In this document: positions 13,774 through 57,097 of the stretch, piece by piece
Numbering within the stretch: position 1 is the first letter of the stretch
How the letters are laid out: the number at the start of each line of letters is the position of its first letter
Translations under genes and position numbers: made by a program
Notes under the pieces: generated by a model
What the model was told of the DNA's origin: nothing
Databases searched by the model: none
Seen by the model: the letters and a program-made list of their open reading frames with translations, nothing else
Source of the DNA: Heterodontus francisci
Lineage: Eukaryota
Assembly: GCF_036365525.1 (NCBI RefSeq)
Contig: NW_027142279.1
Span: 992,001-1,056,000, forward strand
Direction: 5' to 3'
Length of the DNA: 64,000 nt

Positions 13774-16530
13774 GGGCGCACAGTGATGCAGTGGTTAGCA
13801 CTGCAGCCTCACAGCTCCAGCGACCCGGGTTCGATTCTGGGTACTGCCTGTGCGGAGTTTGCAAGTTCTCCCTGTGACCGTGTGGGTTTCTGCTGGCTGC
13901 TCTGTTTTCCTCCCACAGCAATGACTTGCAGGTTGATAGGTAAATTGGCCATTGGAAATTGCCCCGAGTGTAGGTCGGTGATAGGGAGTATGCAGGGTTA
14001 GTCTTAATGGGTTGTTGTCATGGACTGCGACACCGACCAGCCCCTGGTGTGCAGCAAGGTTGGACTCAAACCAAAGAAGCTGCATCACTCCAAGCAGAAG
14101 GGCTGCCCGCGCATCACACTGGCAGAATTTCTCATCCACAGCGGTTACATAAGTTTCTAAATTCACTTGAAAAAGCCCTTCAAAACACTCCCACAGGGGA
14201 TGCAGAGACCAAAAGGGTCCACATCAGAGACGCCATCTATGACTCAGCAATGACCACCTATGGCAAATGTGTGAAGCGGAATGCAGGCTGGTTTCAATCT
14301 CACATTGAAGAGCTGGAACCTGTCATAGCCACTAAGCGCATTACACTGCTGAACTCCAAGAAAGTCCCCAGCGAGTTAACATCCGCAGCACTTAAAGCAG
14401 CCAGAAGCGCTGCGCAAATGACTACTGGCAACACCTATGCAGTCATATTCAGCTGGCCTCCGACACTGGAAATATCAGAGGAATGTATGATGGCATGAAG
14501 AGAACTTTTGGGCCAACCATCAAGAAGATCACCCCTCTCAAATCTGAATCAGGGGACACAATTACTGACCAACGCAAGCAAATGGACCGCTGGGTGGAAC
14601 ACTACCTAGAACTGTACTCCAGGGAAAATGTTGTCACTGATACCACCCTCAATGCAGCCCAGTCTCTGCCAGTCATGGATGAGCTGGACGTACAGCTAAC
14701 AAAATCGGAACTTGGTGATGCCATTGATTCTCTCGCCAGTGGAAAAGCCCCTGGGAAAGGATAGCATTACCCCTGAAATAGTCAAGAGTGCCAAGCCTGC
14801 TATACTGTCAGCACTGAACGAAGTGCTTTGCCTGTGCTGGGACGAGGGAGCAGTACCACAGGACATGCGCGATGCCAATATCATCACCCTCTATATGAAC
14901 AAGGGTGACCACGGTGACTGCAACAACTACCGTGGAATCTCTCTGCTCAGCATAGCAGGGAAAGTCTTCGCTCGAGTCGAATTAAACATGCTCCAGAAGC
15001 TGGCTGAGCATGTCTACCCTGAGGCACAGTGAGGCTTTCGAGCAGAGAGATCTACTATTGACATGCTGTTCTCCCTTCGCCAGCTACAGGAGAAATGCTG
15101 TGAACAACAGATGTCCCTCTACATTTCTTTCATTGATCTCACCAAAGCCTTTGACCTCGTCAGCAGACGTGGTCTCTTCAGACTACTAGAAAAGATTGGA
15201 TGTCCACCAAAGCTACTAAGTATCATCACCTCATTCCATGACAATATGAAAGGCACAATTCAGCACAGCGGCGCCTCATCAGACCCCTTTCCTATCCTGA
15301 GTGGCGTGAAACAGGGCTGTGTTCTCGCACCTACACTGTTTGGGATCTTCTTCTCCCTGCTGCTCACACATGCGTTCAAGTCTTCAGAAGAAGGAACTTT
15401 CCTCCACACAAGATCAGGGGGCAGGTTGTTCAACCTTGCCCGTCTAAGACCGAAGACCAAAGTACGGAAAGTCCTCATCAGGGAACTCCTCTTTGCTGAC
15501 GATGCAGCATTAACATCTCACACTGAAGAGTGTCTGCAGAGACACATCGACAGGATTGCGGCTGCCTGCAACGAATTTGACCTCACCATCATCCTCAAGA
15601 AAACGAGCATCATGGGACAGGATGTCAGAAATGTTCCATCCATCAATATCGGCGACCACGCTTTGGAAGTGCTTCAAGAGTTCACCGACCTAGGCTCAAC
15701 TATCACCATTAACCTGTCTCTCGATGCAGAAATCAACAAGCGCATGGGAAAGGCTTCCGCTGCTATGCCCAGACTGGCCAAGAGGGTGTGGGAAAATGGC
15801 GCACTGACACAGAACACAAAAGTCCAAGTGTATCATGCCTGTGTCCTCAGTACCTTCCTGCATGGCAGCAAAGCCTGGACAACGTATGTCAGCCAAGAGC
15901 GACGCCTCAATTCATTCCATCTTCACTGCCTCCGGAGAATGCTTGGCATCAGGACCGTATCTCCAACACAGACGTTCTCGAGACGACCAACATCCCCAGC
16001 ATATAAGCCAGCGGAGCATCAGATGGCTTGGCCATGTGAGCCGCATGGAAGATGGCAGGATCCCCAAGGACACATTGTACAGCGAGCTCGTCACTGGTAT
16101 CAGACCCACCAGATGTCCATGTCTCCACTTTAAAGACGTCTGCAAATGCGACATGAAGTCCTGTGACATTGATCACAAGTCGTGGGAGTCAGTTGCCAGC
16201 GATCACCAGAGCTGGCAGACAACCATAAAGGTGGGTCTGAAGAGTGGCGAGTTGGAGAGACTTAGCAGTTGGCAGGAAAAAAGACAGAAGCGCAAGGAGA
16301 GAGCCAACTGTGTAACAGCCCCGACAACCAATTTTATATGTAGCACCTGTGGAAGAGTCTGTTACTCTAGAATTGGCCTTTATAGCCACTCCAGGCGCTG
16401 TTCCACAAACCACTGACCACCTTCAGGCGCTTACCCATTGTCTTCGAGACAAGGAGGCCAAAGAAGAAGTTCGGCATGACTGGGTGGGCCGAAGGGTCTG
16501 TTTCAATGCTGTATCTCTAATAAATATTAA
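13774..16530 (+). mobile_element. tRNA-derived V-SINE (HE1-like), 13774-14017 plus 16470-16530, split by RTE
   Basis: A/B boxes gcagtggttagca...gggttcgattc, V-domain gcggagtttgcaagttctccctgtgaccgtgtgggtttc, 3' tail gggccgaagggtctgtttcaatgctgtatctctaa. Confidence 0.85.
14018..16469 (+). mobile_element. RTE-clade LINE (BovB/RTE-1-like), 5'-truncated, frameshifted
   Basis: Ends of endonuclease (DCDTDQ), NYRGISLLS, FIDLTKAFDLV, GVKQGCVLAP, LLFADD, C-terminal CSTCGRVCYSRIGLYSHSRRC, (GAA)n tail. Confidence 0.93.
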
Positions 16531-29771: not shown

Positions 29772-32700
29772 ATGTGGACTCTGCTGATCATTCTGGGTTA
29801 CCTGAGTGAGTAACTTTCATTCTCGACAAAGTTGACCCCCAGTACAACTGGAACAAGCTGTGTTTATTCAAACCGTTATATAGAATAATCTCCCAAGATG
29901 TTGCACAGAAATCTGATGGAAGAAATGTCTGACAGGGCAGGGAAGGAGATGATTGGAGGGCTAACTGTTAGTTTAAAAGAGCAGACGGAGGTGGAGAGGC
30001 AGAAAGGTTTAGGAGGCTGGACATCTTGAAGCCACATCAGACACTGCTGGAGGAAAGGGAGTGGAGGGAAGTTCTACAGGAGGCTTGGGTCAGAGAAACA
30101 GAGAGTTGGTGAAGATTACAGAAATGAGGTGGGAGAGGGTGGAGAGGTCATGAAAGAATTTGAACAGGAAGATGGAAGTTGTACATCAAAGGCGTTTGCA
30201 GCTGTGAACCAATGTGGGTCAGAGAGCACAGGGGTGATGTGTGACTTAAACTTTCTGCAAGATAACATGCAACAGCAGTGTGTTGGAGGAGACCTGACTT
30301 CTGGAAAGTGGAAGCTGGGAGGCTGGCCAGGAGTGGATTAGAAGATTTGATTCTCTAGAAGGTAGAGGGTTTTTGGTAGAGGATTGGCTGAGGCAAAATC
30401 AGTGATGGTGGATATTACGGAGGTTGTAATTGGATGTCCTTGTGATGAGGAGGCTACAGGGAAGGAAGCTGGGCACAGTCAGAAGCTGATGAGAAATTGG
30501 AGAGGGACAAGATAGATTCTCGGGGTACGCTAGAGGTAACAGTGCTGGAGTGCGTAGGGAAGACATTGCAGGAGGTTCTCTGGCTGAGACTAGACTGGGT
30601 TGAGTGGAAATAGGCCAGAGCAGTTCCACCCAGCTGGACATGGAAGGAGAGGTGTTGGCGATGGATAGTGTGGTGAATTGTGTCAAAGACTGCCGACAAT
30701 TCGAGAAGGATGATCAGAAACGGTATTCCTGACTTGGCTCTTGCAGCTTCACTGCTGCTCAAACCCTTTACCAGTTCTTTGGTACCTCTAGACTTGACTA
30801 TTCCAAAGATCTCCTGGCTGATCTCTCACATTCCACCTTCTGTACATCTTGGTCATCCAGTATGATACTGCCCAAGTCCCGTTCACCTTTCATCTCTGTG
30901 CTCACTGACCTGCACTGGCTCCCGGTTCAGCAAGGCCTGGATTTCAATATTCTCACAATCGTTTCCAGATCCTTCTATCACCTCGCCGTTCCCTACCGCT
31001 GAAATCATCTCCAGCCCCACAACCCTCGGAGATCTCTGTGCTCCTCTAATTCAGGCCTCTTGAGTATTCCCGATTCGAATCCCTTCCACTATTGGCAGCT
31101 GTGCCTTCACCTGCCGAGGCTTAACGCAAGGGAATTCTCTCCCTCAACTTCTCCGTCTCTCCACCTCTCTTTCATCCTTTCAGACACTCCTTAAAACCTA
31201 CCTCTTTGACATAGCATTTGGCCACCTGCCCGACCAGCTGCTTCTGTGGATCGGTGTCAGTTCGGGATGGTAACACACCGATGAAGTGCTTTGGGACATT
31301 TTATTACATCAAAGGCAGTACATAAATGCAGGTTGTTGTTGGTTTTGAGACTACACGTTCCCTCTCCAGGACCCACCAGTCACACTGGGTCGCTTGTGCT
31401 CCACCTGGCAGTTCTCGCTCCTCCTCCACTTTACATCTTTCCAACTGGGATGAAGTGAAGCTGAGATATTTACTGCTTTCTGCTACCTGAGAGCTGGTGG
31501 TTAATCTAGAATAGGGAGGACTGTCTGTGAGCAGTGAGTTAGAGGGGGAGGCTGAGCTGGGAGACAGATGGAAACCCAATTTAGAGAAGGAGGACATTTT
31601 CCAGCTTTAATCTGGGGGGTTTTGACCAGGGCGGAGGGTGAAACTGAGATTATTGGTATTTTGGGAGGGTACAAGGCGCTGTTTAACATTAACTGTACTT
31701 TATATTAACATTAAACATCTTTCTGTCACTCAGTCACAGACTCCACACTCACTGACCCGTGTGTAAATCACACAGTCCTGGACCAGCCCTGGAGGAGCAT
31801 CGATTGTGATGTCACTGTGGGCTCCGGTCAGGAGAAGTGTGATGATAATCTTGCTCAAGGATGGTACAGATTTAAAAGGTAATGTAAAGGAACAAATTCT
31901 GGGTAAATCAGTTAATGAGGGAGGAGTAATGGATTTCCCCCAGTTTCTGGCACTATCTGTTGTTACCAGTCTCTCTAACAGTTAATATTTACCATCAGTT
32001 CAGGGACTGACTCTGTGATTAACTGTTTCAGTTCTGGTGGATGGAAGATTCCGGACACTGTTGTCCCAGATTTTCACTGCTCCACACGTGCCACAGGCTG
32101 GTTACAGGGTAATTTCCGTCTTAAAAATATCAGATTTACATTCACTGTCCAGCACTGTTCACGTGGGTTACCTTCTTCAATATTTATAAACTCTCATTTC
32201 AGGTTCCCATCCCAGTGTGGGACAGGGGGAAGTAACGAGGACAGTTTGTTTTAACAAGGCTGGAAATCGCTGTCACTGGACCCAGGAAATAAAGATCATA
32301 AACTGCAGCAGTTATTTTGTTTATGAGTTGAAGCCTCCACCCGACTGTAACGCTGTTTATTGCACAGGTAGATTGCTGTTTGTATATGGTGCAGATGGGT
32401 GATTCTGGGATGTCCCGTGTCACCCATGGGAATGAGACAGTTTACTCACTGCCCTCCTTTTTGTAAGGGACACAGTGAATAAAGGATCTGTAAAACAGAG
32501 TGAACTCTTCACTAAAACTCTAGGGAACTGAAACAGACGCTCGCTGTCTGGAGAGAGGGCTGGCATGTCTGGGCAGTATTCTGTCAGGTCTGCAATTGAG
32601 GAGATTCAGGTTTTCTGGTGAGTGTCAGACACAGCAGCAGGATCCTGACAGACTCTATGTGAAGGGCAGTCACTCTCACCTCACCTCTTGAGTTCAGCTC

Positions 32701-35700
32701 TTTTGTCCATGTTTGAACCACACTGTAATGAGGTCAGGAGCTAAGTGACCCTGGCGGAACCCAAACTGACCATCACTGAACAGGTAACTGCTGAGTAAGT
32801 ACCACTTGATAGCACTGTCAACAACACCTTCCATCATTTTACTGATGATACAGAGTAGACTGATGGGACGGTAATTGGGTGGGTTGAACTTGCCCTGCTT
32901 TGACTTGTCCTGCTTTTTATGCACAGGACATGCCTGGGCAGTTTTCCACATTGCAGGGTAGATGCCAGTGTTGTAGCTGTACACGAACAGCTTGGCTAAG
33001 GATGCAACAAGTTCTGGAGCACAGGTCTTCAGTACTACTTCCGGGATATTGTCAGGGCCCATAGCCTTTGCAGTATCCAGTGCCTTCAGTCATTTCTTGA
33101 TATCAAGCGGAGTGAATCGAATTGGCTGAAGACTGGCATCTGTGATGCTGGGGATTGCAGGAGAAGGCCGAGATGGATCATCAACTCAGCACTTCTGGCT
33201 GAAGATTTTTGCAAATGCTTCAGCCTTATCTTTTGCACTGATGTGCTGGGCTCCCTGATCATTGAGGATGGGGATATTTGTGGGGCCACCTCCTCCAGTT
33301 AGTTGTTTAATTGTCTACTGCCATTCACGACTGGATGTGGCAGGACAAGAAATACTGGAATCACTCAGCGGGTCTGGCAGCATCTGTGGAAAGAGAAGCA
33401 AAGTTAACGTTTCGGGTCAGCGACCCTTCTTCGGAACTCATTTGATCCGTTGGTTATGGGATCGCTTAGCTCTGTCCATCGCATGCTAATTATGCTGTTT
33501 GGCATGCAGATAGTCCTGTGTTGTAGCTTCACCAGGCTGACACCTCATTTTGAGGTATGCCTTGTGCTGCACTTTGCATGCCCTCCTGCACTCTTCATGG
33601 AACCAGGTTTGGTCTCCTGGCTTGATGGTCATGATCGAGTGGGGGATATACCGGACCATGAGGTTACAGATTGTAGTTGAGTACAATTCTGCTGCTGCTG
33701 TTGTTCCCACAGCACCTCATGGATGCCCATTGTTGTATTGCTAGACTTGTTTGAATCTATCCCATTTAGCATGGTGATAGTGCCACACAACACGATGGAC
33801 GGTATCCTCAATGTGAAGGTGGGACTTTGGCTCCACAAGGACTGTGCGGTGGTCACGCCCACCAAGACTGTCATGGACAGATGGATATGTGGCAGGCAGA
33901 TTGGTGAGGATGAAGTCAAGTATATTTTCTCCTCTTGTTGGTTCTGTCATCACCTACCGCAGTCCCAGACTAGCAGCTTTGTCTTTTAGGACACGGCTAG
34001 CTCGGTAAGGAGTGGGCTGCAGTGACTGAGAGGAGTGGTCTGCAGAGACTGAGGGGAGTGGGATGTAGTGACTGAGCGAATGAGATGCGGTGACTAGGTG
34101 GAGTAGGATACAGTGAATGTGGGGAGTGGGATGTAGTGACTGAGGGGAGTGGGGTGGAGTGACAGGGGAGTGGGAGGTAGTGACTGAGGGGTGTGGGATG
34201 CAGTGATTGAGCGGAGTGGGAAGTAGCGACTGAGGGGAGTGGGATACAGAGACTGAGGGGAGTGGGATACAGTGACTGAGCGAATGAGATGCGGTGACTA
34301 GGTGGAGTAGGATACAGTGAATGTGGGGAGTGGGATGTAGTGACTGAGGGGAGTGGGATGTAGTGACTGAGGGGAGTGGGATGTAGTGACTGAGGAGAGT
34401 GGGGTGTAGTGACTGAGGAGAGTGGGGTGTAGTGACAGGGGAGTGGGAAGTAGCGACTGAGGGGAGTGGGATACAGAGACTGAGGGGAGTGGGATACAGT
34501 GACTGACGGGAGTGGGATGTAGTGACTAAGGGGAGTGGGATGCTGTAATTGAGGGAAGTGGGATGTAGTGACTACTGAGTGTGATGTGGTAACTGAGGGG
34601 AGTAGGATGTAGAGAAGCGGGGAGTGAGGTGCAGTGACTGAAGGGAATGGTATAGAGTGATTCGGTGGAGTGGGTAAAGTGACATAGAGAAGTGGGATGC
34701 AGTGATTGAGGGGAGTGGGATGCAGTAATTGAGGGGAGTGGGATGCAGCGACTAAGGGGAGAGGGATGCAGTGACTGAGGGCAGTGAGATGTAGTGACTG
34801 AGGGGAGTGGGATGTAGTGACTGTGGGGAGTGGGATGTAGCGACTGATGGGAGTGGGTGCACTGACTGAGGGGAGTGGGTGCAGTGAGTGAGGGGAGTGG
34901 GATGCTGTAATTGAGGGAAGTGGGTGTAGTGACTGAGGGGAGTGGCATGCAGTGACTCAGGGGAGTGTGAATCAGTGACTGTGGGGATTGGGATACAGTG
35001 ACTGAGGGGAGTGGGGTACAGTGACTGAGGAGAGTGTGATACGGTAACTGAGGGGAGTGTGATCCCTTCCATTTATCATCACATTCTCCCCGGTTTCACT
35101 TGTCACTAGAACTTTTCCCAGTTCTGATGTAAGGTCACATATTAACATTAAACATCTTTCTGTCACTCAGTCACAGACTCTGCACTCACTGACCCGTGTG
35201 TAAATCACACAGTCCTGGACCAGCCCTGGAGGAGCAGCGATTGTGATGTCACTGGGTGCTCCGGTCAGGAGAAGTGTGATGATAATCTTGCTCAAGGATG
35301 GTACAGATTTAAAAGGTAATGTAAAGGAACAATTTCAGGGTAATCTAGTCAATATGGGCAGAGTAAGGGATTTCCCCCAGTTTCTGGTACTATCTGCTGG
35401 TACCAGTCTCTCTAACAGTTAATATTTGCCATCAGTTCAGGGACTGACTCAGTGATTTTTGTTTCAGTTCTGGTGGATGGAAGATTCCGGAGACTGCTGT
35501 CCCAGATTTTCACTGCTCCACACATGTTACAGGCTGGTTAAATGGTAATTTCAGCCTTGAGAATATCAGATTTACATTCACTGTCCAGCACTGTTCACAT
35601 GGGTTACAGTCTTCAATATTTATAAACTCTCATTTCAGGTTCCCATCCTAGCGTGGGACAGGGGGAAGTAACACGGACAGTTTGTTTATCCTGGGGTAGA

Positions 35701-38700
35701 AAACACTGCGACAAGGTCCATGAGATAAAGATCAAAAACTGCAGCAGTTACTTCGTTTATGAGTTGAAGTCCCTGTTTTATTGCGCTGCGTATTGTACAG
35801 GTACATTCATGCTTCTATATCATCCAGAGGGTGATTCTGGGATGTCCCGTGTCACCCACAGAAATGAGACGGTTTACTCACTCCCCTCCTTATTGTAAGG
35901 GACACAGTGAATAAAGGATCTGAAACACAAAGTGTACTTCACTGAAACTCGAGGGAACTGAACCAGACTCTGCTGTCTCTGTCTATCAGGCACTCTGATC
36001 CCTGCAGTGTTCATGGCTCACGTCAGGTCCCCACTGCAGTGCTGGGCACCTCACACTCCCTCTCCCAGAAGCAATGTTCGCGAGGAGTTGGATAGGATCT
36101 TCGAGGGTTTGATAAAGATGAAAATCTGACACTGTCTGGACTAGAGAACTATATAAACGAGCTCTTCGGGTTTTCTCCACTCTGCCCTCTTCCTTTATTA
36201 CAGATCCAGAGACTGTCGCAACTGAGGAACCCGAGGAACAAACAACTCGAGAATCCACTAGGGGATCATTGTCTACCCCAGCGGTGTCTGGAACATCAGG
36301 TATCCCCCTTGTGGGTTGCATTCGAAACAGATTCCACACCCAATGTTACACCATAGAAGATCAGTCCTCGAGATCATCCAGTCTCTTACTGAGGGAAGTG
36401 GGATGGAGTGACTGCGGGAAGTGGAAGGGCGTGAATGAGGGAAGTTGGATGGAGTGACTGAGGGGTGTGGGATGGGGTGACTGAGGGAAGTGGGATGGAG
36501 TGACTGAGGTGAGTGGGATGGGGTGACTGAGGGGAGAGGGATGTGGTGACTGAGGGGACTGGGATGCAGTGACTAAGGAGAGTGGGATGATGTAATTGAG
36601 GGGAGTGGAATACATAGACTGAGGGGACTGGGATGTAGTGACTGAGGGGAGTGGGATATAGTGACTGAGAGGAGTGGGATGCACTGACTGAGGGGAGTGG
36701 GATGCAGTGACGGAGGGGAACGGGATGCAGTGACTGAGGGCAGTGGGATGCAGTAATTGAAGGGAGTGGGATGTAGTGACGGAAGGGAGTGGGATGCAGA
36801 GGCTGAGGGGATTGGGATGCAGTGACTGGGGAGTGGAATGCACTGATTGAGGGGTGTGGGATGCAGTGACTGAGGGGAGTGGGATGCAGTGACTGAGGGG
36901 AGTGGGATGCACTGATTGAGGGGAGTGGGATGCAGTGACTGAGAGGAGTGGGATGCAGTGGCTGAGGGGAGTGGGATTTGGTGACTGAGGGGAGTGGGAT
37001 GTGGTGATTGAGGGGAGTGGGATGCAGTGGCTGAGGGGAGTGGGATGCAGTGACTGAGGGGAGTGGGATGATGTAATTGAGCGGAGTGGGATGCAGTAAT
37101 TGAGGGAAGTGGGATGTAGAGACTGAGGGGAGTGGAATGCACTGATTGAGGGGTGTGGGATGCACCGATTGAGGGGAGTGGGATGCAGTGACTGAGAGGA
37201 GTGGGATGCTGTGGCTGAGGGGAGCGGGTTGCAGTGACTGAGAGGAGTGGGATGCACTGATTGAGGGGAGTGGGATGCAGTGACTGAGAGGAGTAGGATG
37301 CAGTGGCTGAGGGGTGTGGGTTGCAGTGACTGAGGGGAGTGGGATGGGGTGACTGAGGGGAGTGGGATGTGGTGACTGAGGAGAGTGGGATGCAGTGACT
37401 GAGAGGAATGGGATGGAGGGACTGAGGGGAGTGGCATGATGTAATTGAGGGGAGTGGGATGCAGTGATTGAGGGGAGTGGGATGATGTAATTGAGTGGTG
37501 TGGGATGTCGTGACATGGGCAGTGCGATGCATGGACTGAGTGGAGTGGGATGTAGTGACTGAGGGAAGTGGGATGCAGTGACTGAGGGGTGTGGGATGTA
37601 GAGACCTAGGGGAGTGGGATGTAGAGACTGAGGGGAGTTGAATGTGGTGACTGAGGGGAGTGGGATGGGGTGACTGAGGGTAGTGGGATGCAGTGACTGA
37701 GGGGAGTGGGATGTAGAGACTGAGGGGAGTGGGATGTAGTGACTGAGGGGAGTGGGATGCAGTGACTGAGGGGAGTTAGATGCAGTGACTGAGGGGAGTG
37801 GGATGATGTAATTAAGGGGAGTGGGATTAAGTGACTGAGGGGAGTGCGATGCATTGACTAAGGGGACTGGGAAGTAATGATTGAGGGCAGTGGGAAGAAG
37901 TGATTAGGGGAGTGGCATGTAGTGAGTGAGGGCAGTGGGATGTAGAGACTGAGGGGAGTGGGATGTAGTGAGTGAGGGGAGTGGGATGTAATGACTGAGG
38001 GGAGTGCGATGTTGAGACTGAGGGGAGTGGGATGTAGAAACTGAGGGGAGTGCGATGTAGAGACTGAGGGGAGTGGGATGTAGTGGCTGAGGGGAGTGGG
38101 ATGTAGTGACTGAGGGGAGTGGGATGTAATGACTGAGGGGAGTGCGATGTTGAGACTGAGGGGAGTGGGATGTAGAAACTGAGGGGAGTGCGATGTAGAG
38201 ACTGAGGGGAGTGGGATGTAGTGGCTGAGGGGAGTGGGATGTAGTGACTGAGGGGAGTTGGATGCCGTGACTGAGGGGAGTGGCATGTAGTGACTGAGGG
38301 GAGTGGGATGTAGAGACTGAGGGGAGTGGGATGCAGTGACTGAGGGGAGTGGGATGTAATGACTGAGGGGAGTGCGATGTTGAGACTGAGGGGAGTGGGA
38401 TGTAGAAACTGAGGGGAGTGCGGTGTGGAGACTGAGGGGAGTGGGATGTAGTGGCTGAGGGGAGTGGGATGTAGTGACTGATGGGAGTTGGATGCCGTGA
38501 CTGAGGGGAGTGGGATGTAGGGACTGAGAGGAGTGGGATGTCGTGAATGAGGGGAGTTGAATGCCGTGAATGAGGGGAATGGGATGTAGAGACTGAGGGG
38601 AGTGCGATGTAGAGACTGAGGGGAGTTGGATGCCGTGACCGAGGGGAGTGAGATGTAGAGACTGAGAGGAGTGGGATGAGGTGACTGAGGGGAGTGGGAA

Positions 38701-41700
38701 ACAGCGACTGCGGGTAGTATGAGACAGTGACTGAGGGGTGTGTGATACATTCACTCAGGGAGTGTGATACAGTGACTGAGGGGAGTGTGATACAGTGTCT
38801 GAGGGTAGTATGATGCAGTCACTGAGGGGTGTGTGATACAGTCACTCAGGGAGTGTGATACAGTGACTGAGGGGAGTGTGATACAGTGTCTGAGGGTAGT
38901 ATGATGCAGTCACTGAGGGGAGTGTGATGCAGCGACTGAGGGTAGTGTGATGCAGTGTCTGAGGGGGATGTGATACAGTGACAGAGGGTAGTGTGATACA
39001 GTGACTCAGGGAGTGTGATACAGTGACTGAGGGGAGTGTGATACAGTTACGGAGGGGAGAGTGATGCACTGACTGAGGTGAGTGGGACACAGTGACTGAA
39101 GGGAGTGTGATACAGTGACTGAGGGTAGTATGATACAGTCACTGAGGGGAGTGTGATACAGTGTCTGGGGTTAGTATGATACAGTCACTGAGGGGATGTG
39201 ATGCAGCGACTGAGGGTAGTGTGATACAGAGTCTGAGGGGGATGTGATACAGTGACTGAGCGTAGTGTGATACAGAGTCTGAGGGGGATGTGATACAGTG
39301 ACTGAGGGTAGTGTGATACAATGACAGAGGAAGTGTGATACAGTGACAGAGGGGAGTGTGATGCAGTGTGTGAGGGGAGTGTGATGCAGTGACTGAGGGG
39401 AGCATGATACAGTGACTGAGGGGTGTGTGATACAGTCACTCAGGGAGTGTGATACAGTGACTGAGGGGAGTGTGATACAGTTACGGAGGGGAGTGTGATA
39501 CACTGACTGAGGGGAGTGGGATACAGTGACTGAAGGGAGTGTGATACAGTGACTGAGGGGTGTGGGATGCAGTGACTGAGGGGAGTAGGATACAGTCAGT
39601 GAGGGGAGTGGGATGCAGCGAATGAGGGTAGTGTGATATAGTGAGTGAGGGGAGTGCGATACAGTGTCTGAGGGGAGTGTGATACACTGACTGAGGGGAG
39701 TGGGATATAGTGACTGAAGGGAGTGTGATACAGTGACTGAGGGGACTGCGATACAGTGTCTGAGGGGAGTGTGAGACACTGTCTGAGGGGAGTGTGAGAC
39801 ACTGTCTGAGGGGAGTGGGATACGGTGAACTGAAGGGTGTGTGATACAGTGACTGGGGGAGTGTGATACAGTGACTGAGTAGAGTGTGATACACTGTCTG
39901 AGGGGAGTGGAATGCAGTGACTGAAGGGAATATAATGCAGTGACTGAGGGGATTGTGATACAGTGAGCTGAAGGGAGTGCGATGCAGCGACTGAGGACAG
40001 TGTGATACAGCGACTGACGGGAGTGGGATACAGCGACTGAGGGGAGTGTGATACAGTGACTGAGGGGAATGTGATAAAGTGACTGAGGTGAGTGTAATGC
40101 AGTGACTGAGGGGAGTGTGATAGAGACTGAGGGCAGCATGATGCTCAAACTCAGGAATCCGAGGAACAATCGACTAGAGAATCTACTGAGGTTTCATCCA
40201 CTACCCACCGGGCTCTGGAAGCTAAGGTATCTGCTTTGTGGGGTTATCATCGCAGAATCATGGAATCAAAGACTGGTTACGGCACAGAAAGTTTCTGTTC
40301 AGCCCATCTTCACCGTGCCAGCTCTCTGGCAGTGCAACTCACCTACTCCCACTCCTGCCATTTTCCTGTCGCCCTGCAGATATTTTCTGCCAGGACAATT
40401 ATCCAATTCCCTTTTGAAAGCCTCAATTGAACCTGCCTCCAGCACACTCTCATGCAGTGCATTTCAGATCCTAACCACTCACTGTGTGAAAAGGTTTCCC
40501 TGCCTCTGTTGTGACTTTTACCACTCACCTAAAACCGTTGCTCTCTAGTTCTGGATCCTCCCACCAAGAGGAACAGTTTTTCCCTGACTACTCTGTCTAG
40601 TTCCCTCTTGATTATGAACAACTTGCTCAAATCTCCTCTTCATCGTCTCTTCTCCAGGGAGAACAGCCCCAGCTTCTCCGATCTATTCATGTCACTGACG
40701 TCCCTCATCCCGGGAACCATTCTGGTAAATTTTCTCTGCACCCTCTCGAATACCTTAACATCCCTCCTAAGTATTGACCGCTCTCTCGACCTGTCTTGCC
40801 ACCTTCAATGATTTGTGCACATGTCCCCCCCAGGTCCCTCTGCCCCTGCATCTCCTTTAGAATTGTATCCTTTATTTTATATTGCCTCTCGTTCGTCTGA
40901 CCAAAAATGAATCACTTCACAATTCTCTGTGATAAATTTCATTTGCCAGTGTCTGCCCATCCCACCAGCCTGTCTATAACCTCCTGACGTCTATTGCTAT
41001 CCTCCTCACAGTTCACAATACTTCCAGGTTTTGTGTCATCTGCAGATTTTGAAAGTGTGCCCTGTACGCCCCAGTCGATGTCATTAATTTACATCAGGAA
41101 CAACAGTGGTCTGAGCATTATTAGAGAGCAAAACATAGATGCACAGAGAATTAGGAGGGACAGATAACAAAGGAGTCGATAAGAGTATCGTATGAGACGG
41201 GGACAGTGTAAGAGGAAAGGTGATGAGCTGTAAATTCAGTTTAATGTGTGTGTATGTGAATGCAATGAGAGTGGTAAATAAGGTTGTTTAACTTCAGGCG
41301 CAGATAGCCACGTGGAAATATGATGTTGTGGCAATTACAGGGTCCTGGCTCGAAGAGGGGCAGGACTGGGTAGTGAATATTCCTGACTACAAGGTGTTCA
41401 GGAAAGAGAGGGGAGGAAGGAAAGGAGGAGGGGTATCAGTATTGATTAAGGGGAACATTACAGTGCTGTTTTCTTTTCTCACTCTTGTTCACACTCATTC
41501 CAGATCTCCCTTACTCTTTTCTGTCTCACACCTGTCGCCTTCCCTCCTTTTCTCTCACTCCTGCTCTCTGTTGTTCTCTGACTCCACTTTCCCCCTGTCG
41601 TTTCGCTGATCATTTTGATAATCTCCTGAGTTTTCTCTGTTAGTTTTTGTTTCTTGTTGGAGTAGTAACTGATTCTGCAGCCGATGATATCTTGTGTCCC

Positions 41701-43700
41701 CCCTCAGTAAAGGCTGGTATACATTGATTCAGTGTGTCGAGGGAGTTAGATTACATACGAGAGGAGGTTCTGTGTTGAAACACTTCTGTCCACTCATCCA
41801 GCGTTCTGAATCCCAGTGAAATTCCTCTTGTCTTTATTTGACCCTCACAGACTCGGGGATTCCGTCTACTCCCGAGGAACCTCCCGACTCCCAGCCTGTT
41901 TCTGATGATGGTGGGAACATTTCAGATTCTCCACATTTCAGGAATATTAAATCCCTCCTCCTGTCTCAGTCTGGCACAAATATATCAGGACCGAGGGCCT
42001 CCAAACAGCTGTGTGATCGTTCTGTGTAGGGAAACCCATCGTTCTCACTCTCTCTCTGTCTCTCTCTCTGTCTTGTCTGTGCTGTCAGACAAGAATTGCA
42101 GTCGCTTGTGTTCAGTATGACTGGATACATTGGGAAACACAGAAACGTAAACGTCCAAAAATTCCTTCAGAAATATCTTTGAGCTTCTATCTCACATCCC
42201 TCTCTCTGTAACTCTCAGTTTTATCTCTGTCTCTCTGTTTCTCCTTTATCTGCCTTTCACACGCATATATAAATATATTTCATTTCTGTAACCGCCTCTC
42301 TCCTATGTGGTTCTCAGTTTCTCCAGCTCCCTCTTTCACCTCACTCTGTCTCCCACTCTCTCTGATGTTCTGTCTCCCTGTCTGTCTCTCTGACTCTCAC
42401 TTTCTCTCTCTCTGTCTCTCTCACAGATGCTCTTTGTCTGTCTCTCTGTCTTTGTCTTTGTCAGAGGGACAGAGAGCATCAGAGAGAGAGAGAGAGAGAG
42501 TGAGAGTGATAGACAGAGACAGAGAAAAGGGCAGTGAGACCGGAGTAAACACGGAATGCAAATGATCTGGGGAGATGGAACAAGGAGGCAACAGAGAAGA
42601 GAGTGCAGGATAGAGGATGATAACACAGAGAGGTCAGATTATAGACAAGACGAGTTGAGATAGAGAGAATAACAGAGACAGATGAACAAACGAGTGGATG
42701 ACAAACTGGAGGAAAGAGAGTTTAAATTAGAGAGGAGAGATCATTCGAAATACGTCCCGTGCCCTGTGCTAAACTCTGGGTGTGTTCAACCTGTTGATGT
42801 TGTGACTGTTGTGTTTAGATACTAAATACAAGAGGATTAATGTGAAGATCACTTCAATGACTGATCTGGATGATGAAACTGCAAAGAGAATCGTTGTGGA
42901 GAGGGTGAGAGACTGCACTGGACTGAGGAGAAACACGGGAGACAACAGATCCTCCCTCTCACTGTCTGTATTCACTGAATGGGAACTCCAGGTCATTATT
43001 TAAACAGCTCTAATTCCCCCTCTGCTTATCTTCTGGTCCCCCAGATCAGGCTTGTGAGGGGTTGAATGGGCTTCCTCCTGAGCCTGTGTGAAAGGCTGGA
43101 GAGGGGGTGAGGGGGCTGAATGGCCTTCTCCTGTTCCTGTGTAATAACTCGAACGAGGGGCTGAATGGCCTCCTCCTGTTCCTGTGTAACAGACTCGAGG
43201 GGATGAATGGCCTCCTCGTTGTACGGTAACCTCTCTCTGATCTTCCCTCTCACTCTCCCCATTCTCTCTTTATGTCCTTTCTATCTCTGTCTCTTTCTCT
43301 GCCTCGCTCACCCAATCTGTATTTCTCTTTCTGTGTCTTGCTTTCTGTCTCTGTCTGTCCCTCACTGCATCTCTGACGACCTCTCGCTCTCACACCCTCT
43401 GTTTCTCTACCTCTGTCTCAATCCCTGTAGCTCTCCCACCCTCCCTCACCATCTCTCCCTCTATCTGAGTATCTTTGCCTCTCCCTGTATCTCACTGTCT
43501 TGCCCCCACCCTCTCTCCCGATCTCTGTCTGTATGCTCTCTGTCTATTTCTATTCACTCCTCCCCTTGCAGTAATACTCATCGTTTCTCCTCTCTGCGAT
43601 GCAGATGAAGCACATGTTCCAGGATCAGTGTCCACACACGAAGCTCGAATTGGATCCAGAAGACGTTCAGTGCTCGGCTAGTGAGCCTGTGGAAGTGTGA
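29772..43700 (+). CDS. GP2/uromodulin/OIT3-like D8C-domain secreted protein, paralog B (380 aa; signal peptide, 2 x D8C, S/T/E/P stalk, C-terminal module; no ZP domain)
   Basis: Exons 29772-29805, 31734-31878, 32032-32108, 32203-32367, 35171-35315, 35468-35544, 35639-35800, 36204-36299, 41851-41910, 42819-42904, 43605-43700. All AG/GT-bounded, phases chain, total 1143 nt without internal stop. Signal MWTLLIILGYLITDSTLT; D8C motifs DPC.N.T.LD.PWRS, GWYRF, C.T..TGWL.GSHP, RTVC, NC..YFVYEL, YCT. Confidence 0.85.
29880..31340. mobile_element. L2 LINE fragments: minus ~29880-30720, plus 3' end ~30730-31340
   Basis: Minus LLELSAVFDTIHH; plus LTDLHWLPV-like segment and tail aaggcagtacataaatgcaggttgttgtt. 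Confidence 0.75.
31734..32367 (+). CDS. D8C cassette 1 (three exons) of gene B
   Basis: TDSTLTDPCVNHTVLDQPWRSIDCDVTVGSGQEKCDDNLAQGWYRFK / SSGGWKIPDTVVPDFHCSTRATGWLQ / GSHPSVGQGEVTRTVCFNKAGNRCHWTQEIKIINCSSYFVYELKPPPDCNAVYCT. Confidence 0.92.
32665..34005 (-). mobile_element. CR1-group LINE remnant (endonuclease end to RT start)
   Basis: EPTRGENILDFILTN, GPDNIPEVVLKTCAPEL, NYRPISLL, QFGFR. Confidence 0.88.
34010..35065. repeat. 23-bp G-rich satellite array between the two D8C cassettes
   Basis: (agtgactgaggggagtgggatgt/gc)n. Confidence 0.95.
35171..35800 (+). CDS. D8C cassette 2 (three exons) of gene B
   Basis: TDSALTDPCVNHTVLDQPWRSSDCDVTGCSGQEKCDDNLAQGWYRFK / SSGGWKIPETAVPDFHCSTHVTGWLN / GSHPSVGQGEVTRTVCLSWGRKHCDKVHEIKIKNCSSYFVYELKSLFYCAAYCT. 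Confidence 0.92.
36385..40145. repeat. 23-bp G-rich satellite array, two subtypes (gtgggatg to ~38700, then gtgtgatac)
   Basis: Direct reading; right end matches the right end of array 528-6350. Confidence 0.97.
40146..40226 (+). pseudogene. Dead truncated stalk pseudo-exon, paralog of 6351-6432
   Basis: Same satellite junction and TAA; additional 1-bp deletion. Confidence 0.8.
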
Positions 43701-45414
43701 AGGTGTTTGGACATGTCAACAAGCACCCGACACGTGTGATCCAGTCTCTGTGTGTTTTACATCCTCACTCAATCACTGTACCATCTTATCTTCACCTTGT
43801 TTAACTCAAGGAAATTGTCAGCAAAGGGTTAATCTCCGACTAGAAGTATGCTAATGTTATACTGTAATTGGTGTTTCTTTATACCGCAGGGGTGTGGGAG
43901 CTTTAAGCTATTGCTTTGTTAAATAGAGAAGTACGATCCCATTTGTATACAGTGACCACTGGTCAGCTGAACCCAGACTAACCTGACAGCTCTGGCCACT
44001 TTCAGGATGAAGTGATCTCAGGTTTAATGAGGGAGTTTCTTTAAAGATCTACCATTGAGTAGAGGTCCCTAAGCTTCATGGAGCTGTCAGCACTGAGAAT
44101 AGGGGCAAGGAAAACAGTTCGTCCTTGTCCAAGGAGAACCTCAGGGTAGATAACATCTTTTAAATTGAGGGTTCATGCAGAATGGGGGATCGGTTGATGC
44201 TGAACTTTGCAGAATCAAAATATATTGAAAAGGAAAGCTTTCATTGAGTACAAAGCATTTATGTGTGGCATATGTCAAATGTTTAATAACAAAGGAAGGG
44301 AGTTGTACTGAGCTCAGGAACCTAATGCTGACAACACTCCATCTCAATAACACCTCTGTGAATGCTTCCATTGTCTCTGCTCTGCCACACTGCTTGTCTA
44401 ACATCCAATACTGGATGAGCAGATATTTTCTCCTACTAAATATTGGGAAGACTGAAGCCATTGTCTGTGGTCCCCGACACAAATGTCATTCTTGGACCAC
44501 TGACACCATCTCTGGTACCTGTCTGAAACTGATCAAGACAGTTTTCAGCCTTTGTTGTTGTGTTTGACCCCGAGATGAGTTTTCGACCACATATCCACAC
44601 CATCACCAAGACAGTCCATTTTGCACCTCCATACCATCTCTCGACTCCGCCCCTGCTTCAGCTCATCTGCTGCTGAAACCCTAATCCGTGCCTCTGTTAC
44701 CTCCAGACTGGACCATTCCGATACTCTCCTGGCCAACCGCACATCCTTCACACTTCCTGATCAGATCCTCATACAAACATTTGCTGCCTGTGTCTTAACT
44801 CACTCCGAACCCTGTTCACCCATAACCCCTGGAACTATTGCCATTCACTGACTCCCTGCTCCTCTCCAATTTCCCAATATTAACATCCTGACCAGTCTGT
44901 TGAACTGTTGTGAAATGATTCATTGGTCACAGCTCTCTAGTGTAACAATGTAAAACGTCTGCAATAAGTGAACATGGCTGTGTATCTTCCATTGATGGAC
45001 ATTCAAACAAGGAGAGCTGCAGCATGGAAAGGCTTTTTAACGTGTTTGACTTCCTGACCACCCAGTGTGATTGCAAATCTGATTGTAAACTGTGTGTTTA
45101 AAGTTTTATTGCATTCTCTGTCTGCTAAATATATCTATGAATATTGAACCTGACCGTCTCAAGAAGCTGATTGATTTTGCTGGAATGGCTTTACCATCTG
45201 ATCATGGAAATCCAGTTTTTTTTTTGTTCTGGGAGGGAATACTCACTGTTAAATGATTGCTGAGTGCTGAGATCAGAAGGGATGTGACTGTACGTGGTGG
45301 GACTGCCCAGCATTCCCCAAACCTTGTGCTACTCCATTCTATTCTGGTCTGTGCTTCCACCCTGGATAATCCAGCTCATTCAAGGCCTGTCAGATCAAAA
45401 TGAGAAATCCTGAC

Positions 45415-46990
45415 CTTTCAAAAGGCATTTGATACAGTTCCACACATCAGACTTGTGAGCAAACATGTAGCTCTTGGAATGCATAGGACGGTAGCAACAT
45501 GGATTACGAAATTGGCTGAGTGACAGGAAACAGAGAATAGTGGATAATGGATGTTTTTCGGGCTGGAGAAAGGTTTGTAGTGGACTTCCCCAGGGATCAG
45601 TGTTGGGACCCTTGCTTTTCCTGATATATATTAATGTCCTAGACCTCGGTGTACAGGGCACAATTTCAAAATATGCAGATGAGACGAAACTTGGAAGCAT
45701 TGTGAACTGTGAGGAGGATAGTGTAGAACTTCAAAAGGACATAGACAAGTTGGTGGAATGGGCGGACAAGTGACAGATGAGGTTCAATGTGGAGAAATTT
45801 GAAGTGATTAATTTTGGTAGGAAGAACATGGAGAGACAATATAGAATCGAGGTTACAATTCTAAAGGGGGTGAAGGAGCAGAGAGACCTGTGTGTATCAG
45901 TGCATAAGTCATTGAAGATGGCAGGACAGGTTGAGAGAGTGGTTGATAAAGCATACAGTATCCTGGGCTATATTAATAGGGGCATAGATTACAAGAGCAA
46001 GGAAGTTATGTTGAACCCGTATAAGACACTAGTTTGTCCTCAGCTGGAGTATTGCCTCCAATTCTAGGTGTTGCACTTGAGAAAAGATGTGAGGGCATTT
46101 GAGAGAGTACAGACGAGATTCACAAGAATGGTTCCAGGTATGAGGAATTTCAGTTATGAAGATAGATTGGAGAAGTTTGGACTGTTTTCCTTGGAGAAGA
46201 GAAGGCTGGGAGGTGATTTGAGAGAGCTATTCAAAATCATGAGGGGCCTGGACAGAGTAGACACTGTTCCCACTCGTGAAATTATCGAGAACGAGAGGGC
46301 ACAGATTTAAAGTATTTGGTAAGAGAAGCAAAAGTGACATGGGGAAACAAGTTTTCATGCAGCGAGTGGTTAAGGTCTGGAATGCGCTGCCTGGGAACAT
46401 GGTGGAGGCAGATTCAACTGAAACATTTAAAATAAAATTAGACAGTTACATGAAATGGAAGAATTTGCAGGGTTACAGGAAGAGGCCGGGGGAGTGGAAC
46501 TGAGGGAGTTGCACTTTCAGAGAGCCGGTGCAGACACGATGGGCCGAATGGCCTCCTTCTGCGTGGTCACAATTCTGTGATTCTTTGATTATTATGAGGA
46601 ATGTTTGAAGAGGTTGGGCAGATACTCATTGGAGTTTAGAAAAATGAGCCACGTAAGATTCTGAGGGGGCTTGACTGGGTAGATGCTGAGTGGATGTTCC
46701 TTCTCGTTTGGGAATCTAGAACGAGGCGTAACAATTTCAGAATAAGGGGGTCTCCCATTTAAGACGGAGATGCGGAGGATATTTTTCTCTCAGAGGATTT
46801 GTGAGTCTGTGGAACTCCGTTCTCTGGAGAGCAACGGAGGCTGGGTCATTGAATATATTCAAGCCTGAGTTTGACAGATTTTGATTCTACAAGGGTGTCA
46901 TGGTTATAGAGGGCAGAAAGGAAAGTGGAGTTAAAGCTGCAATCAGATCAGTCATGAACTTATAGAATGGCTGAGCAGGCTCGAGGGGCC
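45415..46990 (+). mobile_element. CR1 LINE remnant (uninterrupted paralog) followed by a second CR1 3' end
   Basis: ORFs 45540-46503 GLPQGSVLGP, SKYADETK, LEYCLQF, QRVVKVWNALP. Confidence 0.9.
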
Positions 46991-50472: not shown

Positions 50473-50650
50473 TCCATAAAGCCCCTCCGTCGACCCTGTT
50501 ATGCAGGAACAGCAGGAGGCCCTTTCAGTCCCTCTGTCGGGACTGTTACGCAGGCACAGCAGGAGGCCCATTCAGCCCCTCTGTCGAGCCTGTTACACAG
50601 GAACAGGTGGAGGCCCATTCATCCCCTCTGTCGAGCCTGTGCATGGTACC

Positions 50651-50960
50651 AGTATCACTCAGATGTACTGGGACAGACAATATCTGGGGAAGGAGCCGCA
50701 GCTGATGTTTTACTCCCTAACTGCACAAAGGGTGAACTCAGAGGGGACAGTGGAGCAGTACCCTCTGCATGTACTGGTACAGACAAGAGCTGGGGAAGGA
50801 GCCGCTGTTGATGTTTTACTCCAATACTGCTAACTATGTGGATCCAGAGGGGACGGTGGACCATTTTACTGCCGAGAGACCGACTGACTCCGAGTACAAC
50901 CTGGAGTCCTCCAGCCTGCGGGAGAATCACTCGGCCTTGTATTTCTGTGCCTGAAGACAT
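50651..50960 (+). pseudogene. TCR beta V pseudogene, chimeric and leaderless (TRBV30-like family)
   Basis: Fragment 1 SITQMYWDRQYLGKEPQLMFYSLTAQRVNSEGTVE fused at ~50754 to fragment 2 SSTLCMYWYRQELGKEPLLMFYS..SALYFCA*; TGG>TGA at 50952-50954; FR1 and leader missing. Confidence 0.92.
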
Positions 50961-50999
50961 CACAGTGACTCAGAGGGATGGAGCTGTTGAACAAAAACC
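50961..50999 (+). promoter_or_regulatory. 23-RSS, perfect consensus
   Basis: CACAGTG - actcagagggatggagctgttga (23) - ACAAAAACC. Confidence 0.97.
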
Positions 51000-51753
51000 C
51001 AAAAGGCTGCAGGAATCACCTGTTTCAGATAAAATTGCTCTGTGCCTCGATCTATTGTTCCCTTTTGCAGAGTGAAAGCGTTTATTACAATAAAAAGAAC
51101 TGAGTTATGATTGTAGTGACAAATTGAATTTACAGGTACTGGCAATGGTGCAAAGAACGATGAATAAGGATGTCACGAGATAGGGAGACAAAGATAGCGT
51201 CAAAGACAGCGAGACAGCAAGAGAGACATAATGAGAGAGAGAGATCGACAGAGTGGACAGCGGGAGAGAGGAGGAGAGAAAGAGAGACTGAGATTAAAAA
51301 AAAACAAAGCCTGAGACACATAGGGCGATAGAGATAGAGACAAACACAGTGACAGAGAAAGAACTAAAGAGATAGCAAAACTAAGAAATTGGGAGAGAGA
51401 GAGAGAGAGTCAGATAGAGACGGAGAGAGTGGAAGGTAAACTGAGAGAGAGGGAGAGTGCGGAAGGTAAACTGAGAGAGAGAGAGAGTCAGAGAGAGGGA
51501 GACAGCGAAAGGTAAACTGAGAGAGAGGGAGAGAGCGGAAGGTAAACTGAGAGAAAGAGAGAGAAGTAGATTGGCAAACAATTTGATTGTGATTTGTTCA
51601 CCTGGGGGAATGGGCGTCTCCAACATTGTATCACTTCCTAACGCTCTTCATGTTCCTCCCAATGATTTGTAAAGAGTGGATTTGGACCCTCACAAGACTC
51701 TAAGCTCCTGATCTCACTCCTATGTCTATTAATAGAACAAGTTGAAGTGAAAG

Positions 51754-52210
51754 ATGCATCAGTTACTGGGTCTGATAATCCTGTTACATTGTATGTGAGT
51801 GTGAAATGCAAAAAATTATTGTTAATAACTTTCCTCTCCTCTCTCTGTCTCCCTTTCATTCCCAGAAGTTCCCTGTTTACTGATATCCTCCTCTCTCCAT
51901 CTCTCTCCCGGATGTGAACTCACAGACTATCCACCCGATTCCTGCCGCTGTCTCCAGATTTCCCGGGAAAGGAGTGGAACTGAGGTGCACTCTGGAGGGG
52001 AGCAGCAGTATCATCTCCATGTACTGGTACAGACAAGAGCCGGGGAAGGAGCCGCTGCTGATGTTTTACTCCAGTATTGCTAACTATGTGGATCCAGAGG
52101 GGACGGTGGGCGGTTTCACTGTGGAGAGACCGACTGACTCCCAGTTCAACCTGGAGACCTCCAGCCTGCAGGAGAATCACTCGGCCGTGTATCTCTGAGC
52201 CTGGAGTCTT
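51754..52210 (+). pseudogene. TCR beta V pseudogene (TRBV30-like family)
   Basis: Leader 51754-51790 MHQLLGLIILLH; acceptor mutated AG>GG (51910-51911); V exon 51912-52210 SQTIHPIPA..C..MYWYRQ..; second Cys codon is TGA (52196-52198) followed by AWS. Confidence 0.95.
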
Positions 52211-52249
52211 CACACTGACTCAGAGAGATGGAGAAGTTCAAGAAAAACC
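52211..52249 (+). promoter_or_regulatory. 23-RSS, non-consensus
   Basis: CACACTG - 23 nt - AGAAAAACC. Confidence 0.92.
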
Positions 52250-52569
52250 CCAAAGGCAGCAGGAAACACCTGTTTCAGATAAAACCAGGCGGTGCTGCGT
52301 CCTGTTGGATGTTTTCATCATTGGGAACATGTTTTTCACAAGACAGGGCGGATTTAAATAGATAGAGACTGGTTAGAAATAGAAGCACAGGGGAATTGTG
52401 AAATAGACTTTACAGGAATGATATCAGGAAACAGAGGTTAAAGTTATCAAGATAGTTTGAACATCGGGGGATCTTTGTTCCAGAAAGGAGAAGAATGAAG
52501 GGTAAACCTTCATCCGTCTTAGAGAGATAATTAAAGACTTTAATATGTGAAGTGAAGATCAAATAAACA

Positions 52570-52583
52570 CAGATAGATAGAGC

Positions 52584-52638
<55 letters not shown>

Positions 52639-52680
52639 GGATACATACATACATACAAACATTCATACATACATACATAC
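52570..52680. repeat. (GATA)n/(CATA)n microsatellite
   Basis: Direct reading; shorter paralog at ~57420-57460. Confidence 0.95.
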
Positions 52681-52994
52681 GGTGTGGTTTGATGTCACAG
52701 TGTTTTCTTTCTCCAAAGGGACAGCAGAGTGCGCTGTAGGACCATGATAAACATCAGAGTCTGGAACACACTTGAACAGTAACCTGGGAACACAAGGAGA
52801 CCATTCATCACCTCGGAAACACTCCGTCCTTCAATGAGATCATGACTGATCAATAACTTCTTGTCGGTCCCTCTCTGCATTCCCCCCCTCTCTCTCTCTC
52901 TCTCTCTCCCTCCATCCCTCTCTCTCACTCTAGTTACCAAGCTGGTGTAAAATGAGAGAATGACAATTAACAACCCTGCCTTTTACAGGGGCAG

Positions 52995-53530
52995 TGACTG
53001 TCTCTCTCGCTCACTATTTCTCTACCTCTCTGACTTTCCCTCTATCTCTCTATTTCTCTACCTTTCCATATATCTATCTGTCTACCTGACTGTCTCTCTA
53101 TCTAGCTCGTTATTTCTCTACCTATATGACTTTTCCTCTATCTCTCTATTTCTCGACCTCTCTCCATATCTATCTGTCTACCTGACTGTCTCTCTATCTA
53201 GCTCGTTATTTCTCTACCTATATGACTTTCCCTCTATCTCTCTATTTCTCGACCTCTCTCCATATCTACCTGTCTACCTGACTGTCTTTCTATCCAGCTC
53301 GCTATTTCTCTACCTATCTGACTTTCCCTCTATCTACCTCTCTCTCTATATCTACCTGTCTACCTGACTGTCTCTCTATCCAGCTCGCTATTTCACAACC
53401 TATCTGACTTTCCCTCGATCCCTCTATTTCTCTACCTCTCTCTATATCTATCTGTCTACCTGACTGGCTCTCGATCTATCTATCTCTCTACCTGGTTATC
53501 TATCTCTCTGTCTCTCTATCTATCTAACTC
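52995..53530. repeat. Pyrimidine-rich ~96-bp tandem repeat; paralogous array ~57835-58400
   Basis: tc(t/c)agctcg recurs at 53101, 53197, 53293. Confidence 0.85.
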
Positions 53531-55500: not shown

Positions 55501-55539
55501 CACAGTGTTTGAGAAAGCGGATCCGCAGCTGCAAAAACC
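55501..55539 (+). promoter_or_regulatory. 23-RSS
   Basis: CACAGTG - tttgagaaagcggatccgcagct (23) - GCAAAAACC. Confidence 0.97.
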
Positions 55540-55559
55540 TGCAGCGGATGAACGGGAGT

Positions 55560-57058: not shown

Positions 57059-57097
57059 CAGACTGACTCAGAGAGATGGTGCAGTTCAACAAAAACC
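57059..57097 (+). promoter_or_regulatory. 23-RSS with CAC>CAG heptamer change
   Basis: CAGACTG - actcagagagatggtgcagttca (23) - ACAAAAACC. Confidence 0.9.

Follow-up and report, generated by a model that had tools for sequence, protein, structure and literature searches.

The decoy module of GP2 and uromodulin (UMOD), represented by PDB entries 7p6r, 7p6s and 7p6t and by Pfam family PF23283, is a D10C domain. In GP2, this domain has ten cysteines that form the disulfides C1-C8, C2-C9, C3-C6, C4-C10 and C5-C7, and N65 is the FimH-binding glycan site; the C5-C7 region of UMOD is described as binding immunoglobulin light chains (PMC8930769). The only role so far understood for D10C is to present a glycan on ZP filaments. 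Another close system is the omcins of zebrafish (omc1-15). The authors call the omcin family teleost-specific, and omcin5 knock-out zebrafish are infection-prone (PMC11415648). We analyzed 64,000 nucleotides of the shark Heterodontus francisci (assembly GCF_036365525.1, contig NW_027142279.1, positions 992,001 to 1,056,000; hereafter, the window), in which two tandem three-exon cassettes, A and B, encode the two D10C domains of one predicted gene.

The shark gene resembles the GP2/UMOD decoy module in sequence, in predicted fold and in a sequon at the N65 position. Unlike GP2 and UMOD, it has two tandem domains, lacks EGF domains, a ZP module and a membrane helix, and ends in a Ser/Thr/Glu stalk followed by a 60-residue C-terminal domain. 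Its D10C domain is also without the C3-C6 pair and has an extra cysteine pair in the exon-1 loop, and no beta-hairpin lies upstream of the first domain. The omcins are matched in the tandem cluster, the variable number of D10C domains per gene and the lineage-specific expansion; however, zebrafish Omc5 has EGF IV, a ZP module and a predicted glycosylphosphatidylinositol (GPI) anchor, unlike the shark genes (PMC11415648). By this analogy the shark proteins may work like GP2/UMOD and the omcins, but they are not members of either group.

By self-BLAST, copy A (the first D10C repeat with flanking intron) occupies 31702-32549 and copy B (the last D10C repeat, of the B type) 35139-35978, on the forward strand like all exons given below. 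The copies are 88.0% identical over 848 columns at an offset of 3,437 bp, and the homology between them ends sharply at 31702 and 32549. This confirms the duplicated cassette of about 850 bp, 3437 bp apart, that had been noticed in an earlier reading of the letters (the original prediction). In copy A, exon 1 (31734-31878) contains C1, the sequon equivalent to GP2 N65, variable loop 1 and C2; exon 2 (32032-32108) contains variable loop 2 around C4; and exon 3 (32203-32367) is an island of old divergence. Two patches lie in exon 3. Patch 1 (32252-32288) is the C5-C7 beta-hairpin, where 17 of 37 bases are unlike B, and patch 2 (32334-32358) is the loop around C9, with 11 of 22 bases unlike B and a 3-nt indel. 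The corresponding exons of copy B are at 35171-35315, 35468-35544 and 35639-35800. All six have ag/gt ends with phases 1-2-1-1, and the open frames encode 128 residues in A and 127 in B. A minisatellite at 34009-35063, masked by Tandem Repeats Finder, lies in the intron between the cassettes.

Divergence between the copies is uneven. Mismatches amount to 5/145 in exon 1, 7/77 in exon 2 and 36/162 in exon 3, against 18/152 in intron 1, 7/94 in intron 2 and 22/178 in the downstream intron, so that exon 3 exceeds all intron sequence taken together (47/456; Fisher p=0.0003). The first 29 bp 3' of exon 3 are also divergent (8/28). The original prediction held exon 1 and much of the intron sequence to be nearly identical; this stands for exon 1 and for the introns locally, but the introns are about 10% diverged overall. 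Its clustering of exon-3 replacements was borne out, since the densest 40-bp window has 17 A/B differences, a number reached in 0 of 10,000 shuffles, and the exon-3 peptides it quoted (including PPPDCNAV vs SLFYCA-A) were correct.

Substitutions between A and B were counted by the Nei-Gojobori method. Non-synonymous (dN) and synonymous (dS) divergence was 0.036 and 0.033 in exon 1, 0.11 and 0.06 in exon 2, and 0.20 and 0.59 in exon 3. The original prediction had proposed diversifying selection on exon 3 between the cassettes and had itself named a dN/dS well below 1 as evidence to the contrary; the ratio found was 0.34. The comparison of exons with introns, which it had also suggested as a check, gave a synonymous divergence of 15/37 (0.41) in exon 3 against 47/456 (0.10) in the introns (p=7e-6), and against 2/48 synonymous changes in exons 1 and 2 (p=5e-5). 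Outside the patches, exon 3 has eight synonymous changes and one non-synonymous change, and its synonymous divergence (8/24) is still above the introns (p=0.003). Positive selection on amino acids leaves synonymous divergence unraised; the synonymous excess of exon 3 thus points to an older split. Positive selection between the exons 3 of A and B is not supported.

A profile search found 346 proteins, of which 120 were listed (P0001-P0120). After 12 coral proteins, one teleost protein and one unnamed protein were left out, 106 elasmobranch proteins were used; together with the two domains of the window they gave 210 domains, 150 of them near-complete and distinct. Among the listed matches, the B-type signature appeared in 13 of the 210 domains, every one a last or sole repeat. 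The carriers are proteins of Heterodontus, Rhincodon, Hemiscyllium, Chiloscyllium and Mustelus, that is, of three shark orders. H95 was present in 10/10 B-type domains but in only 3/140 others, a one-residue deletion was common to all ten, and W86 and L113 were present in 10/10 and 9/10, respectively. Since these residues are kept across three orders, the features that define the two types in patch 2 and at the end of patch 1 are old, and they are not hypervariable. Moreover, because the signature occurs in the last repeats of whale shark, bamboo and epaulette sharks and smooth-hound, the A/B difference is older than the orders, whose split was Mesozoic. The order signal peptide-A-B is common to Rhincodon, Hemiscyllium, Chiloscyllium, Mustelus and the paralog P0004. 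In the same set, a three-repeat subfamily of rays and skates (P0029, P0034, P0027, P0024, P0025) has a middle repeat whose C5-C7 hairpin is extended by a long insertion of variable sequence.

For comparison of the two parts of the domain, the N part was defined as 83 columns (exons 1 and 2 and the start of exon 3). Identity of the first and last repeats over the N part was 0.90 in this gene, 0.77 in the paralog P0004 and 0.48-0.65 in five genes from other galeomorph species. Over the C part, A and B are 55% identical. Trees were built from 24 hand-picked complete shark domains, with isoform duplicates and batoids excluded. In the N-part tree, copy A was placed inside a Heterodontus B group (support 83/79 and 89/81), whereas the C-part tree had a single cross-order B clade (98/96). 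For the C part, approximately unbiased (AU) tests gave p=0.002 against an A+B clade and p=0.005 against a Heterodontus clade, both of which were rejected; with the N part, a Heterodontus clade was not rejected (p=0.16). The locus thus shows the local synonymous excess and the partition-dependent tree that a divergence island under gene conversion would show.

The cassettes are the first and the last D10C domains of one spliced gene, and we think it likely that their exon 3 preserves an old split which survived conversion of its flanks. As for the mechanism, it is quite probable that two old types, A and B, were kept while conversion homogenized the remainder. A and B would be repeat types that predate conversion in the Heterodontus line; there, gene conversion would have homogenized exons 1 and 2 together with the introns flanking exon 3, leaving exon 3 plus about 30 bp of intron as the unconverted island. 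Tracts over exons 1 and 2 and the introns would be tolerated, and those replacing the C5-C7 hairpin or the C9 loop would be purged, presumably because the two repeats need different tips. That selection purges the exon-3 tracts is suggested by the conservation of the B residues inside otherwise variable loops. The inference of the original prediction is therefore best read in reverse: exon 3 is old and the flanks are homogenized. Its alternative proposal of patch conversion holds in part, since conversion is supported, but the simplest form is homogenization of the flanks and not import of a patch. A comparable case is the poeciliid opsins LWS-1 and LWS-3, tandem copies homogenized in introns and exons, for which selection against homogenizing conversion has been proposed to keep functional differences (PMC5714168). 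In the shark gene, by contrast, the units are domains of a single gene, and the difference that persists extends over three shark orders. The locus is a clear within-gene divergence island, and it illustrates that a variable exon inside conserved introns can signal an old exon, not a fast one.

Several observations weigh against this account. The repeats of Heptranchias are also alike (0.90 over the N part and 0.84 over the C part), with no island. The N part rejects the B clade only marginally (p-AU 0.0496), support for most of its forks is weak, and the partitions are short, with just 39 columns in the C part. The B clade of the C-part tree is partly circular, because the B type was defined by a C-part motif; the A+B test is not. 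Furthermore, two DNA copies do not fix the direction or the number of the conversion events, and selection against conversion is deduced only from the pattern. Patch 1 itself has 15 non-synonymous changes and one synonymous change (omega about 5), in a patch picked post hoc.

This last count favors the idea that a recent duplication was followed by diversifying selection on the exon-3 loops, as the original prediction mainly held. The A/B differences also fall at high-entropy columns of the family (mean 2.25 vs 1.09 bits, p=2e-6), and in 53 disjoint close same-species pairs of family domains the four variable loops differ at 597/2669 positions, against 267/3749 elsewhere. However, the patch-1 excess is non-significant, both within the patch (p=0.10) and against the synonymous divergence of exon 3 (p=0.46). 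With an exon-3 dS far above the introns, a B signature common to three orders and the A+B clade rejected for the C part, recent duplication with diversification is largely refuted for A vs B, and we regard it as very improbable.

A different origin of the same mosaic is that a recent B-type duplicate received an A-type exon 3 from a paralog by patch conversion or unequal crossover, with no need for selection against conversion; the opposite direction of conversion yields an identical mosaic. The nesting of the copy A N part among the Heterodontus B-type domains and the sharp ends of homology are as expected from this, and paralogous donors are many (six Heterodontus proteins; 191 and 168 matching contigs). 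But position A need not be new, since the order signal peptide-A-B is a shared state, the flanks are homogenized on both sides of exon 3, and an A-type exon 3 is retained in 4/4 Heterodontus first repeats compared. We consider this origin unlikely. Slightly less probable still than recent diversification is that the loops are an unconstrained surface and the island a chance remnant, where mismatch alone stopped conversion once exon 3 had drifted. Variability at the protein level is compatible both with relaxed constraint and with positive selection, and the non-synonymous divergence of the converted N part (10/171) is not above the introns. However, the island matches one exon, and the conservation of W86, H95 and L113 across three orders is unexpected under drift. 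The account with old A and B types and converted flanks remains our preferred one.

Splicing was analyzed in contigs of 4 of 24 listed sequencing runs, compared over 31600-32600. Within this interval, two runs, taken as RNA by guess, cover exon bins only. GT..AG joints over gaps of 153 and 94 nt, together with a joint from exon 3 to exon 1, were found in these RNA-type runs only. Their contigs have 0 differences across 31778-31878 in A exon 1, and one loose end before 31734 fits the signal-peptide exon with one mismatch. The contigs derive from several family members, and one record has six differences in exon 3. The summed contig depth reached about 4,000 over the cassette against about 120-130 at the flank, and was not used as a copy number. 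Thus, the gene family is spliced as modeled. Because the four runs share a single sample and their contigs mix several members, this result covers the family and not this exact copy, and together with the guessed RNA label this counts against the overall account. Mutually exclusive use of A or B was ruled out, since a joint runs from exon 3 to exon 1 and both cassettes occur in annotated homologues. A pseudogene was excluded by the open frames, the canonical splice sites and the spliced family contigs, and an assembly artefact by the 12% difference of the copies and the recurrence of the A/B layout in other species.

The coding model runs from 29772 to 43700 and has ten exons, of which the cassettes make up exons 2-7. 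Its product differs at 3/360 residues from a predicted protein of Heterodontus francisci (P0002). The coding part of the signal-peptide exon is at 29772-29805, with the ATG at 29772 and a phase-1 GT donor. After the cassettes come the Ser/Thr/Glu-rich stalk exon (36204-36299, phase 1-1), the first exon of the C-terminal domain (42819-42904) and the last coding exon with the stop codon (43605-43700). The 360-residue product therefore has the order signal peptide, D10C-A, D10C-B, stalk and C-terminal domain. A degenerate stalk-exon remnant (40134-40230), read from the sequence and from the split frame of tblastn, has lost its 5' end beside the 36388-40133 minisatellite; a candidate optional stalk exon at 41850-41912 is used in the annotated paralog P0004 but not in P0002. 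The C-terminal domain (42819-43700) has one predicted helix, two cysteines and no Pfam family, and is present in 24 of the 106 elasmobranch proteins. An Atlas search with the C-terminal 62 residues gave one match at 0.78, a lead only.

With Pfam D8C_UMOD, the single exon-3 pieces scored 26 and 20.7 bits, under the curated cut-off of 27, whereas the near-identical full protein P0002 scored 75 bits against PF23283 (D8C/D10C; cut-off 27) in two stretches. The gene model, which stops at 43700, contains no ZP module. Pfam gave only PF23283 in P0002, P0004, P0008 and P0001, and tblastn with two homologues annotated with ZP-N matched at the D10C exons only. No hydrophobic helix was found past residue 30 of the product (top 19-residue hydropathy 0.71; no GPI predictor was used), and a strongly hydrophobic stretch past residue 30 occurs in 5/106 elasmobranch family proteins. 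A membrane receptor was ruled out because the model has no membrane helix, membrane anchor or signalling tail. The product is predicted to be a secreted glycoprotein.

The domain matched the GP2/UMOD decoy module in sequence (E 9.5e-25). The AlphaFold model of P0002, made from a 12-row alignment with a mean predicted local distance difference test (pLDDT) score of 67 and a predicted template modelling (pTM) score of 0.47, also matched 7p6r and 7p6t (E 3e-10, target TM 0.73-0.76). C1, C2, C4, C5, C7, C8, C9 and C10 align with GP2, that is, eight of the ten cysteines, and by alignment the shark domain would keep the disulfides C1-C8, C2-C9, C4-C10 and C5-C7. C3 and C6 were found in 0/150 and 1/150 domains; the extra pair in the exon-1 loop replaces them in number. 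The ten-cysteine, five-disulfide pattern of D10C is therefore not reproduced in the shark domain. Copy A has nine cysteines; it is without the second cysteine of the extra pair (31817-31822), which is kept in 135/150 family domains, and the RNA-type contigs back this loss, with no differences over the stretch. The free cysteine of copy A could form an intermolecular disulfide. C2 and C9 co-occur over the 150 domains (p=1e-22), a split that largely tracks sharks vs batoids; C2 was found in 0/86 batoid domains of the set.

Four segments of the domain are variable in the family: patch 1, patch 2, a loop that precedes C2 and another that surrounds C4. Drawn from the same alignment as the entropy, they take up 51 of 122 columns and include 21 of the 22 columns with an entropy of at least 2.5 bits (150 shark and ray domains). 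In the 53 same-species pairs, the segments differ by 22% vs 7% elsewhere, with the highest values in the patches (30% and 28%). The variable surface of the original prediction is thus supported at the level of the family, but the B-type residues that separate A from B are old and conserved. Patch 1 aligns to the C5-C7 segment of GP2/UMOD, and in the P0002 model one patch forms a hairpin tip and the other a loop. Three of the segments are connected to one another by C2-C9 and C4-C10, and in GP2 the fourth is held by C3-C6; the four loops therefore probably share one disulfide-rich end, away from the glycan groove. We infer both the surface clustering of the patches and ligand binding there from the disulfide connectivity of GP2.

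A possible role, to which we give slightly less than even weight, is that of a secreted mucosal antimicrobial decoy or recognition protein. By analogy, this ZP-less protein would act at the mucosal surface as the omcins and the decoy module of GP2/UMOD do. One end of each domain would bear a glycan on the N65-equivalent sequon, and the four paralog-variable loops would lie at the other, disulfide-rich end. The decoy module has its N-glycan site at N65 in GP2 or N275 in UMOD, with a high-mannose glycan bound by FimH and a beta-hairpin packed against D10C. In the shark gene, the sequon is at domain position 5 of both copies, aligned with GP2 N65. However, this sequon is present in just 65/150 family domains, nothing upstream of the first domain corresponds to the glycan-shielding beta-hairpin of GP2, and there is no ZP filament; these three points weaken a strict FimH-decoy role. 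A multi-copy family of sharks and rays with four fast-changing loops and no ZP module would suggest that the D10C protein surface itself binds ligands, and it offers a route to testing what D10C did before GP2 and uromodulin. A broader and rather doubtful proposal is an as yet undescribed repertoire of germline-encoded, secreted D10C recognition proteins in sharks and rays, with a binding face of four hypervariable loops, repeats shuffled and homogenized by conversion and a conserved B-type last repeat dedicated to a fixed partner, in an old immune cluster beside T-cell receptor (TCR) beta V segments.

Public automatic annotation already includes the family genes, with GP2-like names: the elasmobranch proteins predicted in RefSeq as uncharacterized, GP2-like, uromodulin-like or OIT3-like (P0001-P0120) are the same family, and the names are automatic. 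A literature search over listings and the openings of abstracts, with most subscription papers outside its coverage, turned up no description of a D10C family without ZP modules in elasmobranchs, nor any paper linking such a family to TCR beta. GP2, uromodulin and OIT3 are unmentioned in the main text and one supplement of a shark skin proteome paper, and in the main text of a nurse shark plasma paper.

Upstream in the window lies the 3' end of a tandem paralog (90-11124, forward strand), with a stalk exon at 90-185 and C-terminal exons at 10240-10325 and about 11029-11124. The window does not include the D10C exons of this paralog. A segmental duplication (6339-13783 vs 40134-46304, 89-98% identity) carries this 3' end, and one copy has a reverse transcriptase insertion like that of a long interspersed nuclear element (about 6980-8220). 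Large G-rich minisatellites of one family are in the introns of both D10C genes (530-6338, 34009-35063 and 36388-40133), two of them abutting truncated stalk-exon remnants (about 6339 and 40134). About 7 kb past the stop codon, on the same strand as the D10C gene, there are five TCR-type V segments or remnants (50640-60921). The gene lying 5' of TRB in amniotes is MOXD2/DBHL (PMC11754216). A homolog search with one V segment gave nothing at E 1e-15; the 56762 segment has TCR beta chains as its top single-chain matches in the PDB. Recombination signals with 23-bp spacers were found at 50961, 52211, 55501, 57059 (with a non-canonical heptamer) and 60883. The first two segments have stop codons near the V end, and those at about 55209 and 60586 appear intact. 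A unit of V segment, leader and flanks is tandemly duplicated (51586-54302 vs 56440-59159) with about 81% identity.

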